From assembly GCF_055900595.2 (NCBI RefSeq), contig NZ_CM148325.1: a DNA stretch of 64,000 nucleotides; one strand, written 5' to 3'. A model generated the notes under the pieces. The model was not told the DNA's origin. It saw only the letters and a list, made by a program, of their open reading frames with translations, and searched no databases. This document shows, one piece after another, positions 8,857 to 63,859 of the stretch. The position numbers and the translations under genes are program-made. Numbering within the stretch: the first letter of the stretch is position 1; the number at the start of each line of letters is the position of its first letter.

Positions 8857-10990
<2,134 letters not shown>

Positions 10991-11099: not shown

Positions 11100-11247
<148 letters not shown>

Positions 11248-11745
11248 TTATAAAATGATACGCTCTCCGGCACTAAAATCCGTTACGTCCCCCGCCCAAT
11301 CGATGGGATATAACCCTTTCGCGACATCACGATGGAACGTTGAGAATGGCCAATCACTTACCTGCTTTACCCAGCCATGTTTTACTGGATTTATATAAAT
11401 ATAATCAACATGATGGCGATAATCTTTGGTGTTGCGGATGGCATGCTCCCAAAAACGCGGTTGCCAGATATTTTTCAATCCGCAAACATGGGTGAATTGC
11501 TTTTTAATCTCCCGCCAGCGCGAGGAAAAATCATCATCGCTTTCGGGTAATGTCCAGATACAGTGCATATGCTCCGGCAAAACGACCCAGGCGTTAATTT
11601 CAAAAGGCCTGTCTCGCTTAACGTTAATAATGGCGTTACGGAGCATCTGTAACTGAGCGGTCAAAAGTTGGCTTCGACGATTCCGTAAATTTACCGTGAA
11701 AAACCATGTTCCCCCCTTTATATAAAAACGACGATATTCAGACAT
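11248..11745 (-). CDS. rayT: REP-associated tyrosine transposase RayT (TnpA-REP, HUH Y1 family)
   Basis: 165-aa ORF MSEYRRFYIKGGTWFFTVNLRNRR... recognised as RayT/YafM; flanked on both sides by REP arrays. Confidence 0.9.
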   Translation of the reverse strand: MSEYRRFYIKGGTWFFTVNLRNRRSQLLTAQLQMLRNAIINVKRDRPFEINAWVVLPEHMHCIWTLPESDDDFSSRWREIKKQFTHVCGLKNIWQPRFWEHAIRNTKDYRHHVDYIYINPVKHGWVKQVSDWPFSTFHRDVAKGLYPIDWAGDVTDFSAGERIIL

Positions 11746-11809: not shown

Positions 11810-11921
11810 GGGAAAGCGGCTCGCAAAATATTCGCAGACTCGTAGGCATGATAAGACGCGCCAGCGTCGCATCAGGCATCGGCGCATAACCGCCGGATGC
11901 GGCGTACACGCCTTATCCGCC
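11810..11921. repeat. REP/BIME array
   Basis: gtaggcatgataagacgcgccagcgtcgcatcaggcatcggcgcat...gccggatgcggcgtacacgccttatcc. Confidence 0.75.
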
Positions 11922-12680
11922 CTACAAAATCGTCTCTTCTGTCAAAATCCTGCGCGCGCCCAAAAAGTGATCCTGCCAGAAAGGTTCAGCTAACCGACTT
12001 ACCCGAATGGTTTCCCCGGTGCGCGGCGACTCGATAAACTGACCGTCTCCCAGATACACGCCCATATGGTCGGCAATCTCGCGGCTGTGAATATGGAAAA
12101 ACAGCAAATCTCCCCGGCGCAGGTCGTTATTTGCCACAATGGTTGCCCGACGGTAGTGATACATCTCATTGGCCGTGCGCGGGAGTTTCGCCTCGAGGAT
12201 CTTGTTGTAGGCATAAAAAACCAACCCGCTACAGTCGAAGCCTTGATCGGGTCGCGTGCCACCCCAGACGTATGGCTTGCCAAGCTGCTGCTCCAGACGG
12301 TGAATCGCCACTTCGGTGATATTATGCAGGTGGTTACTGCTGAGGAAATGATTGTTTTCCGCCAGCGCCTGCCAGCGTCTGTCACTCGCCTTGAGCGGCG
12401 CAGGAAACCATTCTGGATGCTGTTTTATCTGTTCGCGGTTGTGTTGCCGCAGTGCCCTTCTGCTTTCAGCATTGCCTTCCACAATATAGCTGGCCTGCTT
12501 TTTCAGATGAATTTGGTACTGTTTTAATAAACGCGCACGGTTTTGCATCCGCTGGCGGGCGGCGTAGCTGAAAGAGATATGTGATGTGGTGGCGCTGGCG
12601 AGTAAAGGGAGCAAAACGCATAACGAAAACACGCCTGGATGCAGAAATCTGCCGAGCAAGAACGAAGACATGAAGGACAT
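11922..12680 (-). CDS. yafL: NlpC/P60-family lipoprotein peptidase YafL
   Basis: 252-aa ORF with signal peptide and NlpC/P60-type motif (GFDCSGLVFYAY). Confidence 0.85.
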   Translation of the reverse strand: MSFMSSFLLGRFLHPGVFSLCVLLPLLASATTSHISFSYAARQRMQNRARLLKQYQIHLKKQASYIVEGNAESRRALRQHNREQIKQHPEWFPAPLKASDRRWQALAENNHFLSSNHLHNITEVAIHRLEQQLGKPYVWGGTRPDQGFDCSGLVFYAYNKILEAKLPRTANEMYHYRRATIVANNDLRRGDLLFFHIHSREIADHMGVYLGDGQFIESPRTGETIRVSRLAEPFWQDHFLGARRILTEETIL

Positions 12681-14499: not shown

Positions 14500-14650
14500 T
14501 TAAGAATTTTCAGGTCGGATGCGGCGTGAACGCATTATTCGGCCTACGGTTCGGGTACAGATTTGTAGGCATGATAAGACGCATCAGCGTCGCATCAGGC
14601 ATCAGCGCACAAGTGCCGGATGCGGCGTAAACGCCTTATCCAGCCTACGC
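14500..14650. repeat. REP/BIME array
   Basis: Repeated gtcggatgcggcg...cgccttatcc / gtaggcatgataagacgc units. Confidence 0.75.
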
Positions 14651-50609: not shown

Positions 50610-52493
50610 ATGGATCCACGGCTACTGGAATACTACAACCGCGAACTGAGCTATCTGCGGGAAACGGGAGCCGAATTTGCCGCCCGTCATCCTAAAGTCG
50701 CCGCCAGACTGGGTATGCAGGGAACGGATATTGCCGATCCGTATGTGGAGCGTATGGTCGAAGCCTTTAGCTTCCTGACCGCCCGCACGCAGCTAAAAAT
50801 TGACGCTGAATTCCCCCGTTTCACCCAGCGCCTGCTGGAAGTAGTCAGCCCCAATTACGTCACCCCCACGCCCTCAATGAGCGTGGCGCAGCTCCATCCC
50901 GACCCGGAAGAAGGCGATCTGGCGAAGGGATTTACCGTCCCGCGCGACACGGCCTTTTTTTCCGCCATTCCGGAAGGCGAAAGTACCGCCTGTCAGTTTC
51001 GCAGCAGCCAGGATGTAACGCTGTGGCCGCTCGCCATCGAAGAGGTGCGACTGACCGCCGCACCGCCGGATATGCCTGCCCTGCACCGCTCTCTGCCAGC
51101 CAACATTCACGTCGCTGGTGCGCTGCGTATTACCCTGCGCACCTTTGGTGAACTGACATTCAGTCAGCTTGCAGGGCTGGACAGGCTTCCGTTTTATCTC
51201 TGTGGCGAGGAGCGCACGGCCTCACACCTGTTCGAACTGCTACATACCAGCGCCATCGCGACCCTGGCTGGCATTCCGGGGCATTTTGACGGTGCGCTGG
51301 ATGTGAATCTGCAACATCCCGTTATGTACGAAGGCCTGGAGCTGGATCAGGGGCTGCTGCCGCTGGCGTGGAACGTGTTTCACGGTCATAACCTGCTGCA
51401 TGAATATTTTGCCTGTCCAGAACGCTTTTATTTTTTCACCCCGACAGGCCTGTCTGCCGGGTTACAGAAAATTGACGGTGGCGTGGCGGAGATTGTTATC
51501 CTGCTGAACCGCCTGCCGCCGGACTGGCTGATCCACCAGACAAACGCGGCACAGTTCAGCCTGTTCTGTACCCCGATTATCAACCTGTTTCCCCGCGTCA
51601 CCGCACGGATCGATGTCACGCACAGCACGACGGAACAGCATCTGGTGGTAGACAGAACCCATCCACTGGATTATGAGGTGTTCTCGGTCCAGGAAGTGGA
51701 AGGGCTGGAAACCGACACCACACGGAAGATGGCCTTTCGCCCGCTCTACCACACCCGCAATAATGATGAAGGCAATCACGGACGTTATTTTTCCCTGCGC
51801 CGGGAGCCCCGCCGCTTATCAGAAAACGCCCGCCGTTACGGCACCCGTACCCCCTATACGGGCTCGGAAGTGTTCCTGTCGCTGGTTGACCAATATGAAG
51901 CGCCGTACCCAGAAAATCTGCGCCACATCACCATCACGGCCATGGTCACTAACCGCGATCTGCCCTGTCTTATTGCACGTAATGGCCGGGACGATCTAAC
52001 CGTGGATGCGGCAATCCCAGTGGCGGGCGTAGGGCTTATCCGCCCGCCGCGCTCGCCGCAGCCCCCGCTGGCTGAACGTGAGATGGCCTGGCGTTTGATC
52101 CGCCAGTTATCCTTTAATTATCTGCCGCTGGCCGATCTGGATCACCGTACCGGCGGCCAGGCGCTGCGCGATCTGCTTAACCTGTTTATTCCGGCGCATG
52201 ACAGCCCACAGTCGCGCCAGGTACGCAGTCTGATTGGCTGCAACACCACCCCGGTCACCCGCCGTCTGCCCGGTACCGGGCTGCTGGTCTATGGACGCGG
52301 CGTCAGTTGTGAACTGACGGTGGATGAGGAAGGGTTCTCCGGTATCAGTCCGTATCTGTTCGGCCTGGTGCTGGAGCACTATATCGCCCGTCATGTTTCC
52401 ATTAATACCTTCTCGCAGATGACGCTGCACAGCATGCAGCGCGGCAAAATTATGACCTGGCCTGTCAGGGCGGGACAGCGGGGAAGCGTATGA
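50610..52493 (+). CDS. tssF: T6SS baseplate protein TssF
   Basis: 627-aa ORF recognised as TssF. Confidence 0.9.
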   Translation: MDPRLLEYYNRELSYLRETGAEFAARHPKVAARLGMQGTDIADPYVERMVEAFSFLTARTQLKIDAEFPRFTQRLLEVVSPNYVTPTPSMSVAQLHPDPEEGDLAKGFTVPRDTAFFSAIPEGESTACQFRSSQDVTLWPLAIEEVRLTAAPPDMPALHRSLPANIHVAGALRITLRTFGELTFSQLAGLDRLPFYLCGEERTASHLFELLHTSAIATLAGIPGHFDGALDVNLQHPVMYEGLELDQGLLPLAWNVFHGHNLLHEYFACPERFYFFTPTGLSAGLQKIDGGVAEIVILLNRLPPDWLIHQTNAAQFSLFCTPIINLFPRVTARIDVTHSTTEQHLVVDRTHPLDYEVFSVQEVEGLETDTTRKMAFRPLYHTRNNDEGNHGRYFSLRREPRRLSENARRYGTRTPYTGSEVFLSLVDQYEAPYPENLRHITITAMVTNRDLPCLIARNGRDDLTVDAAIPVAGVGLIRPPRSPQPPLAEREMAWRLIRQLSFNYLPLADLDHRTGGQALRDLLNLFIPAHDSPQSRQVRSLIGCNTTPVTRRLPGTGLLVYGRGVSCELTVDEEGFSGISPYLFGLVLEHYIARHVSINTFSQMTLHSMQRGKIMTWPVRAGQRGSV

Positions 52494-54674: not shown

Positions 54675-54751
54675 TGGCGGAACGGACGGGACTCGAACCC
54701 GCGACCCCCTGCGTGACAGGCAGGTATTCTAACCGACTGAACTACCGCTCC
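54675..54751 (-). tRNA. aspV: tRNA-Asp (GUC)
   Basis: Exact reverse complement of the E. coli tRNA-Asp sequence as remembered; downstream of dnaQ; T6SS island abuts its 3' end. Confidence 0.95.
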
Positions 54752-61021: not shown

Positions 61022-61936
61022 ATGAAAGCCACGTCGGAAGAACTCGCCATTTTTGTTTCGGTCGTCGAAAGCGGCAGCTTTAGCCGGGCAGCGGAACAAT
61101 TAGGGCAAGCAAACTCAGCGGTAAGCCGGGCGGTGAAAAAGCTGGAGATGAAACTTGGCGTTAGCCTGCTTAATCGGACCACGCGGCAACTTAGCCTGAC
61201 GGAAGAAGGCGAGCGTTATTTTCGTCGCGTACAGTCAATTTTGCAGGAGATGGCAGCGGCAGAATCAGAAATTATGGAGACGCGTAATACGCCGCGTGGA
61301 CTGTTACGGATCGATGCTGCAACCCCTGTGGTGCTGCACTTCCTGATGCCGTTGATTAAGCCTTTCCGTGAACGCTATCCGGAAGTCACTTTATCGCTAG
61401 TCTCCTCCGAAACGATTATTAATTTGATTGAACGAAAAGTGGATGTCGCGATTCGCGCTGGTACGTTAACAGATTCCAGCTTACGAGCCAGGCCATTGTT
61501 TAACAGTTATCGAAAAATTATCGCCTCCCCCGATTATATTTCCCGCTACGGGAAGCCAGAAACGATCGACGATTTAAAGCAACATGTTTGCCTGGGATTC
61601 ACTGAACCCGCTTCCCTCAATACCTGGCCGATAGCCTGTAGTGATGGACAATTACATGAGGTAAAGTACGGTTTGTCATCCAATAGTGGGGAAACACTGA
61701 AACAGCTTTGCCTGAGTGGCAACGGGATTGCGTGTTTGTCCGACTACATGATCGACAGAGAAATCGCTCGCGGAGAATTGGTGGAGTTAATGGCAGATAA
61801 AGTGTTGCCAGTGGAAATGCCATTCAGTGCAGTCTATTACAGCGACCGTGCGGTAAGTACGCGCATCCGGGCTTTTATCGATTTCCTTAGCGAGCATGTA
61901 AAAACAGCTCCCAGAGGAGCTGTCAGAGAGGCTTAA
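61022..61936 (+). CDS. yafC: LysR-family transcriptional regulator YafC
   Basis: 304-aa ORF with N-terminal HTH and LysR substrate-binding domain; divergent from yafD. Confidence 0.9.
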
Positions 61937-62736
61937 TCCCATTCAGGAGCCAGACCTGCCGGGCTAACCAGGCGGTCGTTGCAATCCAGTGCGGCGATCG
62001 CTTTTTTATCTTCGGCATCAAACTGTAAATTTTGTGCCTTAAGATTACTCTCCAGGTTTTCACGTTTAGTAGAAGAAGGAATTACTGAGTAACCTTCCCC
62101 CATAGCCCACGCCAGAATCACTTGTGCCGGAGTCGCATTGTGTTTAGCTGCGATACGAGCAATAACCTCATTTTTCAGTGCATTACCATAAGCCAGCGTC
62201 ATATAGGAAGTAATATGGATGCCGTGCTGTTTAGCCCAATCAACCACTTTACGGTTTTGCAGATAAGGAGAGAGTTCAATCTGGTTAGTAGCGATGTTTT
62301 CAGCGCCAACAGCAGCAATCGCTTTTTCCATCAATGGGATCGTGAAGTTGGAAATACCGATCTCACGCGTCAGACCTTGTTTTTTCGCTTCCAGCAGCGC
62401 CTGCATAAACTCTTCAACAGAGACTTCATCGTTTGGTGACGGCCAGTGGATTAGCGTCAGATCAACATAATCGGTACGCAATTTTTGCAGGCTCTCTTTC
62501 AGACTTGGGGTCAATTTATCTTTGCTGAGATTTTCAATCCAGATTTTAGTGGTGATGTAGAGTTCATTACGTGGCACGCCACTTTCTGCAATCGCCTGAC
62601 CTACTGCGGCTTCGTTATCATAGATTTGTGCGGTATCAATTGCGCGATAACCAAGTTCAAGCGCCGTTTTCACAGATGAAATAACAACGTCGTCTTTCAG
62701 ACGAAAAGTACCTAAACCAAATGCAGGAATAGCCAT
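61933..62736 (-). CDS. dkgB: 2,5-diketo-D-gluconate reductase B (aldo-keto reductase)
   Basis: 267-aa [24 protein letters not shown]... recognised as DkgB/YafB. Confidence 0.95.
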
Positions 62737-62894
62737 AATATGCCTCTTTTAATGCTATGTTCGTTAACTGAGATGATTATGGACTTTAGACTGTTGCGGA
62801 AAAAGGGCATAAAATGCAGAGGATTTTTGCAATTATGGCAACAATAAACATACAGACGAAAATAAATATCCTCCGGCATAGCCGGAGGTTTTTC

Positions 62895-63530
62895 AAATGC
62901 GCCTGTAAGGCTCTGTTACCAGCCGCGCCCTAACAGGCGCATACGATCTGACATTTGCATTCAACTTCGTTACTTACGGCCCGTAAACGGGCTGCCCGGA
63001 TATGGAATCGATAACTGCTCCCCCATTTTATCCTCTTCAAGCTGGTGCTTTATGTAGTCCTGTATCTTCGCCGTGTTCTTACCCACCGTATCGACATAGT
63101 ACCCTCGGCACCAGAACTCCCTGTTTCTGTATTTGAATTTCAAATCCCCAAACTGCTCGTAAAGCATCAGACTGCTTTTCCCTTTCAGATATCCCATAAA
63201 GCCGGATACGCTCATTTTGGGTGGGATTTCCACAAGCATATGGATATGATCTGCGCAGCACTCTGCTTCCAGAATCCGTACGCTTTTCCACTCACACAGC
63301 TTTCTCAAAATACTGCCTATCGCCCTACGCTTCTCTCCGTAAAACGCCAGTCTTCGGTATTTCGGCGCAAAAACTATGTGATATTTACAGTTCCAGCGGG
63401 TGTGCGCTAAGCTCTTTTCGTCCCCCATTGGGACCCCCTTTTGATTTCTTGTTTGACACTTGCAGTTGCCAGACCGCAAGGTGTTTTAACAAATCAAAAG
63501 GGGTTTTAATAACTGGCTCAAAGCTGAAAG
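62895..63530 (-). mobile_element. IS200/IS605-family (IS200-like) insertion sequence; boundaries approximate
   Basis: Single small transposase gene with HUH Y1 motifs; stem-loop over the translation start region (ccccttttgatttc...caaatcaaaagggg) and a hairpin near the 3' end. Confidence 0.75.
62970..63428 (-). CDS. tnpA: IS200-family Y1 (HUH) transposase TnpA
   Basis: Start set at MGDEKSLAHTRWNCKYHIVFAPKYRR...; HxH motif in ADHIHMLVEIPP. Confidence 0.85.
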   Translation of the reverse strand: MGDEKSLAHTRWNCKYHIVFAPKYRRLAFYGEKRRAIGSILRKLCEWKSVRILEAECCADHIHMLVEIPPKMSVSGFMGYLKGKSSLMLYEQFGDLKFKYRNREFWCRGYYVDTVGKNTAKIQDYIKHQLEEDKMGEQLSIPYPGSPFTGRK

Positions 63531-63535
63531 CTTTC

Positions 63536-63606
63536 CGGAACCCCCAGCCTAGCCGGGGGTTTTCTGTGCACAAAAAAACCTCGAGCGTTAACTCGAGGCT
63601 TCTTAA
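63536..63606 (-). terminator. rrnH operon terminator hairpins downstream of aspU
   Basis: Minus-strand hairpin gcctcgagttaacgctcgaggc + T-run, followed by a second hairpin aaacccccggctaggctgggggtt. Confidence 0.75.
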
Positions 63607-63610
63607 TAAG

Positions 63611-63687
63611 TGGCGGAACGGACGGGACTCGAACCCGCGACCCCCTGCGTGACAGGCAGGTATTCTAACCGACTGAACTACCGCTCC
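63611..63687 (-). tRNA. aspU: tRNA-Asp (GUC), distal gene of the rrnH operon
   Basis: Second exact copy of the tRNA-Asp reverse complement, just downstream of the 5S rRNA. Confidence 0.95.
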
Positions 63688-63739
63688 ACCGAATTCTTTT
63701 ACAACCACCGGTTTTATGACCGGCTTACTGCTTAATTTG

Positions 63740-63859
63740 ATGCCTGGCAGTTCCCTACTCTCGCATGGGGAGACCCCACACTACCATCGGCGCTACGGCG
63801 TTTCACTTCTGAGTTCGGCATGGGGTCAGGTGGGACCACCGCGCTAAGGCCGCCAGGCA
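63740..63859 (-). rRNA. rrfH: 5S ribosomal RNA
   Basis: 120-nt match to the E. coli 5S rRNA reverse complement (atgcctggcagttccctactctcgcatgggg...). Confidence 0.95.

Follow-up and report, generated by a model that had tools for sequence, protein, structure and literature searches.

What separates the rrnH operon from dkgB in this piece of E. coli DNA, how did it come to lie there, and does it have any consequence for the genes on either side? The window is the whole stretch of 64,000 nucleotides that was analysed. Its minus strand reads, in order, 23S rRNA, 5S rRNA, tRNA-Asp (aspU), a terminator hairpin, an IS200 element and dkgB, and the order 5S, aspU, dkgB, yafC matches rrnH in the K-12 annotation. 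All features of the locus described below lie on the minus strand, which is also the sense (top) strand of the element. The 23S gene extends past the window edge. The 5S gene (rrfH) is at 63742-63857, supported by Rfam RF00001 (93 bits) and by the K-12 rrnH order, and aspU, the tRNA-Asp (GUC) gene that closes the operon, is at 63611-63687 according to ARAGORN, the Rfam tRNA model and the K-12 annotation. On the other side of the element is dkgB, an intact aldo/keto reductase gene at 61933-62736 (PF00248, E 1.1e-55; annotated as dkgB in identical genomes).

The operon ends at an intrinsic terminator (63572-63598), recognised by reading the sequence and recorded as inverted repeat I6. The same hairpin, with T8 after it, is present in K-12 and in the nearest empty alleles. 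The hairpin itself, CCTCGAG-TTAACG-CTCGAGG, occupies 63579-63598. Seven T of the sense strand (63572-63578), which form the target site, are still joined to it, and the rest of the split T-tract, TT on the sense strand, is found on the dkgB side at 62859-62860. The rrnH terminator was absent from the minus-strand output of the terminator scan, and the sequence itself was relied on. The miss was probably caused by extension of the stem through A-T and G-T pairs, which swallowed the T-tract.

The DNA between these two parts of the T-tract has one open reading frame with a family match, tnpA (62970-63428), and no tnpB. It encodes an intact transposase of 152 amino acids, in which no frameshift was seen. 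The original prediction of a small HUH Y1 transposase gene is confirmed by the profiles: the protein matches Pfam Y1_Tnp PF01797 with an E-value of 7.9e-37 (126.5 bits, cut-off 23) and the NCBIfam equivalog NF033573 transpos_IS200 with 144.4 bits (cut-off 55). It also aligns to the solved IS200/IS605 transposases 2ec2, 2a6m (ISHp608) and 2xm3 (ISDra2), with E-values of about 1e-16 to 1e-19. The catalytic residues are present as H61-I-H63 and Y125 (...IQDY125IKHQ...), and Y125F is the catalytic-dead mutant of IS200 TnpA (PMC4513863). By annotation of identical loci, the protein is RefSeq WP_000502112.1.

The region in front of tnpA is strongly structured. Folded as RNA, the sense strand from 63580 to 63400 reaches -70.5 kcal/mol (z = -4.45), a value equalled by none of 200 shuffles. 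A prominent feature is a stem-loop at 63433-63503 (IS nt 69-137), found both in the RNA fold and as inverted repeat I2, with 16-nt arms at 63435-63450 and 63488-63503 that are 94% complementary. The 3' arm contains the Shine-Dalgarno sequence AAGGGGGT (AAGGGGGU in the RNA) at 63433-63440. A start-occluding stem-loop had been predicted here. The stem is real; what it occludes is the ribosome-binding site and not the start codon, the AUG of tnpA lying directly 3' of the stem. The layout is that of published IS200, which has a terminator at nt 12-34 and an SD-sequestering stem at nt 69-138 with the same Shine-Dalgarno sequence (Ellis et al., PMC4513863).

Furthermore, the Rfam family STnc490 (IS200 left end / tnpA 5'UTR RNA; RF01405) matches over its full length, 1-124, at 63438-63561, with 143.9 bits against a gathering threshold of 56. 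The match falls on the tnpA-sense strand, at IS nt 11-134, and the art200 antisense RNA is made from the strand opposite to tnpA (PMC4513863). We read the match as a mark of the IS200 left end, and make no strand call for the RNA.

Where, then, does the element begin and end? The A-runs on either side mask the exact ends in the window, and the limits were fixed with the help of about 96 IS200/IS1541 insertions at independent places and six comparisons of filled and empty sites. The independent copies came from an exact-pattern scan with one genome per species, which gave 116 stretches. Y. pestis IS1541 made up most of them, and Edwardsiella, Erwinia, Tatumella, Serratia, Dickeya and Budvicia were among the sources of the rest. 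In the 96 unique left-end flanks of this set, the invariant sequence begins at GTG. Across 81 unique right-end flanks, invariance stops at ATATTTATT and the following base is free. Three more E. coli copies of the window's exact subtype, each with 1 mismatch, have T, A or G after ATT. The element is thus 711 bp long, at 62861-63571, and reads 5'-GTGCAC...ATATTTATT-3' on its sense strand.

Removal of 711 bp gives back the K-12 sequence exactly, with no gap or duplication, at fadR-ycgB, fdnI-yddM and trpT-hdfR, and the same length fits a second rrnH allele, in strain NMBU-W10C18. At ybiJ-hcxB the comparison with K-12 is one T short, i.e. 710. The boundaries, whose resolution had been left open by the original prediction, are in this way set by the 96 left and 81 right flanks and by empty-site restoration. 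The predicted interval, 62895-63535, lies inside the element and lacks about 35 bp at each end.

At aspU-dkgB itself, the net insertion relative to the nearest empty alleles is 712 bp, with one surplus A/T in a homopolymer run. Slippage or polymorphism of the tract would explain the extra base. We rejected two readings of the three extra A, one in which they form a target duplication of 3 bp and one in which they belong to a 712-bp element: the 81 right-end flanks end at ATATTTATT, and the other filled/empty pairs give 711 bp (710 at ybiJ-hcxB). The MAFFT alignment of filled and empty alleles misplaced the gap owing to the A-runs and the similar hairpins, and the junctions were taken from visual reading combined with exact string matching.

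Neither terminus, GTGCAC... or ...TTTATT, is an inverted repeat of the other; hairpins are instead found subterminally at both ends. At the left, AACCCCCGGC-TAG-GCTGGGGGTT forms a 10-bp stem at 63539-63561 (IS nt 11-33; RNA fold and inverted repeat I7), preceded by GAAAA on the sense strand. This hairpin matches the published bidirectional terminator, and TnpA presumably binds it as well. The right end (62861-62894; inverted repeat I1) consists of GAAAAA, the hairpin CCTCCGGC-TAT-GCCGGAGG at 62870-62888 and then ATATTTATT at 62861-62869. It faces dkgB, is terminator-like in both directions and resembles the target sites. Between the tnpA stop codon and this hairpin, a second inverted repeat, ATGCGCCTGTAAGG / CCTAACAGGCGCAT, is present at 62897-62942 (I4).

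With a single tnpA, no tnpB, a length of 711 bp and subterminal hairpins, the element belongs to the IS200 group, as had been predicted, and in the eight genomes that are identical at this locus the RefSeq label is "IS200/IS605 family transposase" (WP_000502112.1). Compared with the IS200 copies known from Salmonella enterica and E. coli, IS200C and related isoforms, it agrees in length (707-711 bp), in the single 152-aa TnpA with HUH motif and Y125, in the terminator hairpin at about nt 12-34, in the SD stem-loop at about nt 69-138 with AAGGGGGU, in STnc490 and in the lack of inverted terminal repeats. The copies labelled IS200C by PGAP differ from the window copy at 28 of 711 nucleotides (96.1% identity in DNA) and at 4 of 152 residues (97% in protein). 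For the window subtype, PGAP uses only the generic family name. No observation argues against the identification as IS200.

The insertion point can be placed within the terminator. In K-12 the interval reads ...CAGACG-AAAAAAAA-CCTCGAG..., i.e. CAGACG-A8-CCTCGAG with nothing inserted, which bears out the prediction that the site is empty there. The genomes with the nearest haplotype, EC42405 and 2020CK-00188 (L007 and L008), are likewise empty, with joined flanks 99.3-99.7% identical to those of the window. The window has CAGACG-AAAA-TAAATATCC...TCTGTGCAC-AAAAAAA-CCTCGAG, and on the minus strand the junctions are hairpin-TTTTTTT / GTGCAC...ATATTTATT / TT-CGTCTG. A position just downstream of the rrnH/aspU terminators had been predicted. 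The element is indeed found between aspU and dkgB; its actual place is inside the T-tract of the rrnH/aspU terminator, whose hairpin retains 7 of 8 T. It is co-oriented with rrnH and with dkgB. There is no target duplication, and dkgB is unaltered together with the 124 bp that separate its start codon from the right end of IS200.

Taken as one joint reading, it is very probable that the IS200 at rrnH is a complete 711-bp element, apparently functional, which was placed by its own Y1/HUH transposase in the T-tract of the rrnH terminator, a neutral passenger being its most likely standing.

As for its occurrence, IS200 is common in the species and rare at this site. Of 5,426 complete E. coli genomes, 2,641 carry it, at a median of 2 places each and at 35 in the richest genome. 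The joined flanks of the rrnH site were found as one place, the empty state, in 5,321 genomes, and an IS200 between aspU and dkgB in only 10 of the 5,426. Eight of these ten are 100% identical to the window over the 1-kb query 62700-63700. The other two, NMBU-W10C18 and CFSAN018748, are about 96% identical to the query and are labelled IS200C.

Could the element be an old resident of the rrnH site that precise excision has since removed in K-12 and most other E. coli? Excision in the IS200/IS605 family is seamless and leaves an empty site without a scar (PMC5027513), and in principle it could account for the two empty genomes of nearest haplotype. One private substitution in the window copy also shows that it is not brand new. 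The distribution speaks against such a history: few genomes are filled (10 of 5,426), they carry two subtypes 28/711 apart on different flank haplotypes, and eight of them are 100% identical over 62700-63700. Moreover, both excision and transposition of IS200 are very rare (PMC4513863). Gain is far more parsimonious. We give ancient residence only the slightest chance of being correct. The preferred reading is that of a neutral passenger carried by a small E. coli lineage, which most likely sits behind a terminator with hairpin and U7 intact.

The private substitution is at 63554, where the sense strand has G and other copies have A. It lies in the left-end hairpin, where it turns an A-T pair into G-T. 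As judged from this pairing, the change could lower recognition by the transposase, and with it the mobility of the window copy.

Recent gain at rrnH appears to have occurred more than once. The element in NMBU-W10C18, the one of the two IS200C-labelled alleles that was read, is inserted at the same nucleotide, and its flank is of a K-12-like haplotype, 94% identical to that of the window. Because the position is the same, the elements differ at 28/711 nucleotides and the flank is K-12-like, this allele points to an independent insertion of the other subtype. In other strains, the terminators of aspV and trpT (rrnC) are also followed by IS200C, again in this orientation and at the corresponding place in the T-tract. 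Copies of the window's own subtype, 1 nt apart from it, are found at the ybiJ, fdnI and fadR terminators.

The question then becomes why terminators should be hit. On the paradigm of IS608 and ISDra2, TnpA would cut out the top strand in the form of a single-stranded circle, to be joined to single-stranded DNA on the 3' side of a short target. The IS200 target would be TTT(T/A/G)TT just 3' of a GC-rich hairpin, i.e. an intrinsic terminator, a configuration that resembles the element's own right end. GAAAA is found 5' of both subterminal hairpins on the top strand and, by analogy, may read the T-rich target. In IS608, bases just 5' of the hairpins guide cleavage and target recognition by base pairing (PMC5934647). 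A run of A in IS200 would suit cleavage sites rich in T.

The flanks of the independent copies follow this pattern closely. The left-flank consensus is TTT(T/A/G)TT, with T at -12, -9 and -8 in 96, 95 and 96 of 96 unique flanks. We then compared 97 IS sites with 3,000 TTTDTT sites drawn from those loci as controls, counting hairpins whose foot lies at most 10 nt from the IS. A hairpin of -8 kcal/mol or better is present at 99% of IS sites (96/97) and at 32% of controls. At -12 kcal/mol or better the values are 97% and 17%, and at -15 kcal/mol or better 82.5% and 11%. The median MFE is -17.4 kcal/mol at IS sites vs -7.0 in controls. The order is always hairpin, T-tract and then left end. The right end of the element is shaped like these targets, as a hairpin followed by ATATTTATT, and in three head-to-tail dimers of Y. 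pestis (L019, L020, L022) the left end directly abuts the right end.

Such an association might also arise by survivorship, if the transposase needed only a T-rich pentamer or hexamer and selection purged the insertions that fell elsewhere. This explanation has an appreciable chance of being right, though we think it somewhat improbable. Most T-runs in non-coding DNA belong to terminator tails, 17-32% of the control TTTDTT sites already look like terminators, and for a near-inert element with its own terminators a spot behind a terminator is the place of least harm. Set against this, 96 of 97 is a very high proportion, and it holds even in Y. pestis. Weak selection against IS insertions in that species, where IS of other types break up many genes, counts against survivorship. 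The constant orientation and the dimers, which use the hairpin and T-rich right end of another copy as target, argue in the same direction. Given a rate of 99%, an orientation that never varies and the junctions of right end to left end, we favour real targeting over survivorship.

A more specific proposal would be that transposases of the IS200 group actively search out intrinsic terminators: on single-stranded DNA, a GC-rich hairpin with TTT(T/A/G)TT behind it would mimic the right end and be read by GAAAA, and the ends of rrn and tRNA operons (aspU, aspV, trpT) would be recurrent hot spots. We offer this as speculation that is rather unlikely to be correct. A possible cause of the hot spots is exposure of the non-template strand where RNA polymerase pauses to terminate. 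The genome data give the association (96/97) and the recurrence of two subtypes at the same nucleotide, and a pattern of this kind could be produced by targeting or by selection alike.

The target rule is probably not new. At 8 of 14 IS1541 sites, Odaert et al. (1998) reportedly saw stem-loops resembling terminators, which they proposed as possible hot spots. In Yersinia, IS1541 disrupts the pheL-pheA attenuator region (PMC3082878). This attenuator case fits targeting of the terminator type.

The strand of insertion can also be considered. In K-12, rrnH is co-oriented with replication. As tnpA is co-oriented with rrnH, and rrnH with replication, the top strand lies on the lagging-strand template, as expected. 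The replication orientation rests on K-12 synteny, because the GC skew of the window core is uninformative (-0.002); the value for the whole window is dominated by a T6SS island. Elements of the IS200/IS605 family insert their top strand into single-stranded DNA, with preference for the lagging-strand template, and IS608 often hits rrn operons (PMC5027513).

Judging from published work, the element would be nearly silent after insertion. In IS200, the left-end hairpin halts incoming transcription, with about 85% of upstream transcripts ending there, the stem-loop represses translation of tnpA about 20-fold, and art200 together with Hfq represses the element further, so that transposition is very rare (PMC4513863, PMC5435999). 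In Salmonella, the tnpA 5'UTR is processed to small RNAs that affect gene expression (PMC5435999).

One may ask whether the element has been co-opted at rrnH, either to add termination or insulation between the operon and dkgB, or to supply regulatory RNA (art200, tnpA 5'UTR sRNAs) such as those in Salmonella. The parts for such a role are present: both end hairpins resemble terminators in either direction, the STnc490 match is unbroken over its full length, and small RNAs from the tnpA 5'UTR have a Salmonella precedent (PMC5435999). We nevertheless consider co-option very unlikely. The original terminator is essentially whole (hairpin and T7), the insertion is rare (10/5,426) and not conserved, and the same element is found at many unrelated terminators, with no feature specific to this locus.

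With a neutral passenger preferred, the consequences for the window are small, as this is a strain-specific copy of a well-studied IS and neither rrnH nor dkgB is damaged by it. IS200, its regulation and the insertion at rrnH are already known and annotated. The rrnH copy is usable as a lineage marker, since 10 of 5,426 complete genomes carry it. A by-product is a statement of the exact ends and target rule for IS200/IS1541, namely 5'-GTG...ATATTTATT-3' after a hairpin and TTT(T/A/G)TT, with no duplication. The rule serves exact annotation, and is a starting point for work on structural recognition of terminators by the smallest autonomous IS.

Among the known systems, IS1541 of Y. pestis and Y. 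pseudotuberculosis is similar in its ends (GTGCCCAG...ATATTTATT), in its hairpins and in its sites, which are terminator-like hairpins with a T-run. It differs in number: the sampled Y. pestis genome has many copies, which account for most of the 116 stretches, as well as dimers, whereas the sampled E. coli carriers of IS200 have a median of 2 places. IS608 of Helicobacter pylori and ISDra2 of Deinococcus share a homologous Y1/HUH TnpA, subterminal hairpins and insertion 3' of a short sequence without duplication. The layout of the ends is also shared, the left being cleavage site, guide and hairpin, and the right guide, hairpin and cleavage site. In contrast to these two, IS200 has no tnpB, and it uses a T-rich hexamer beside a hairpin instead of TTAC or TTGAT; pairing of a guide in IS200 is suggested by analogy with them.

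Lastly, RayT (TnpA-REP) belongs to the same HUH/Y1 fold family and acts on hairpin-forming extragenic repeats. Unlike IS200 it is domesticated, single-copy and flanked by REP sequences, and is not a mobile IS. On the RayT model, whose cut-off is 80 bits, the IS200 TnpA reaches only 30. A RayT copy is present in the same window, at 11248-11745. The aspV terminator is empty in the window, where a single left-end match was found over the whole length. Strain Z0117EC0005 is not collinear with the window, which carries 32.9 kb extra at aspV.

The IS200 copy of the window (62861-63571, minus strand) lies in the T-tract of the rrnH/aspU terminator, and insertions at the equivalent T-tract point, in the same orientation, were found behind two other tRNA terminators. 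IS200C, a related isoform, follows the trpT (rrnC) terminator in E. coli 755 (locus L005) and the aspV terminator in E. coli K_EC180 (locus L006). At least 7 genomes have an IS200C insertion at trpT/rrnC, and at least 13 at aspV.

Between ybiJ and hcxB of E. coli N3 (locus L126), the final T of the IS200 right end is also the first base of the stop codon TTA (reverse complement of TAA) of hcxB, a convergent gene. In K-12, the sRNA ZbiJ and the small ORF ybiE are located at this spot as well. In Yersinia pestis NCTC5923, head-to-tail dimers of IS1541, the IS200-type element of Yersinia, are present at loci L019, L020, L022 and L037. At the junction, the right end (...ATATTTATT) is followed, directly or after a single T, by the left end of the second copy (GTGCCC...). 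These junctions suggest either that the right end itself was used as a target or that they are resolved circle junctions.

At its own left end, the window copy carries a private substitution in the hairpin at position 63554, with CCCCCGGC where nearly all other sampled copies have CCCCCAGC; on the top strand, this changes a stem pair from A-T to G-T. The Rfam model STnc490 (RF01405) matches 63438-63561 on the tnpA-sense strand only, whereas art200, the RNA behind the STnc490 name, is reported as antisense to the tnpA 5'UTR (PMC4513863).

Elsewhere in the window, a 32.9-kb block (20869-53798) adjoining the tRNA-Asp gene aspV (54675-54751) encodes a type VI secretion system (T6SS), with a ClpV-like AAA+ protein, TssM/IcmF, the TssC sheath, VgrG, TssF and a PAAR-Rhs toxin. 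Strain Z0117EC0005, elsewhere 99.9% identical to the window, is without this block and retains only a truncated ImpA/T6SS gene in its place. Within the tssF ORF (50610-52493), ARAGORN calls a 94-nt “tRNA-His” on the plus strand (52276-52369), which is probably a false positive, since it has no Rfam tRNA match.

Beside the IS200 transposase, the window encodes a second HUH/Y1 protein, its domesticated cousin RayT (REP-associated tyrosine transposase; 11248-11745, minus strand; NF047646, 177 bits). On its flanks are REP/BIME-type repeats, matched by the Rfam family naRNA4 at 11110-11181, 11845-11922 and 14568-14645. The sRNA isrC has a full-length Rfam match (145 bits) at 10387-10509 on the minus strand; in the near-identical genome, this region contains remnants of IS3/IS110 transposases and of a truncated flhA/lafU (Flag-2).
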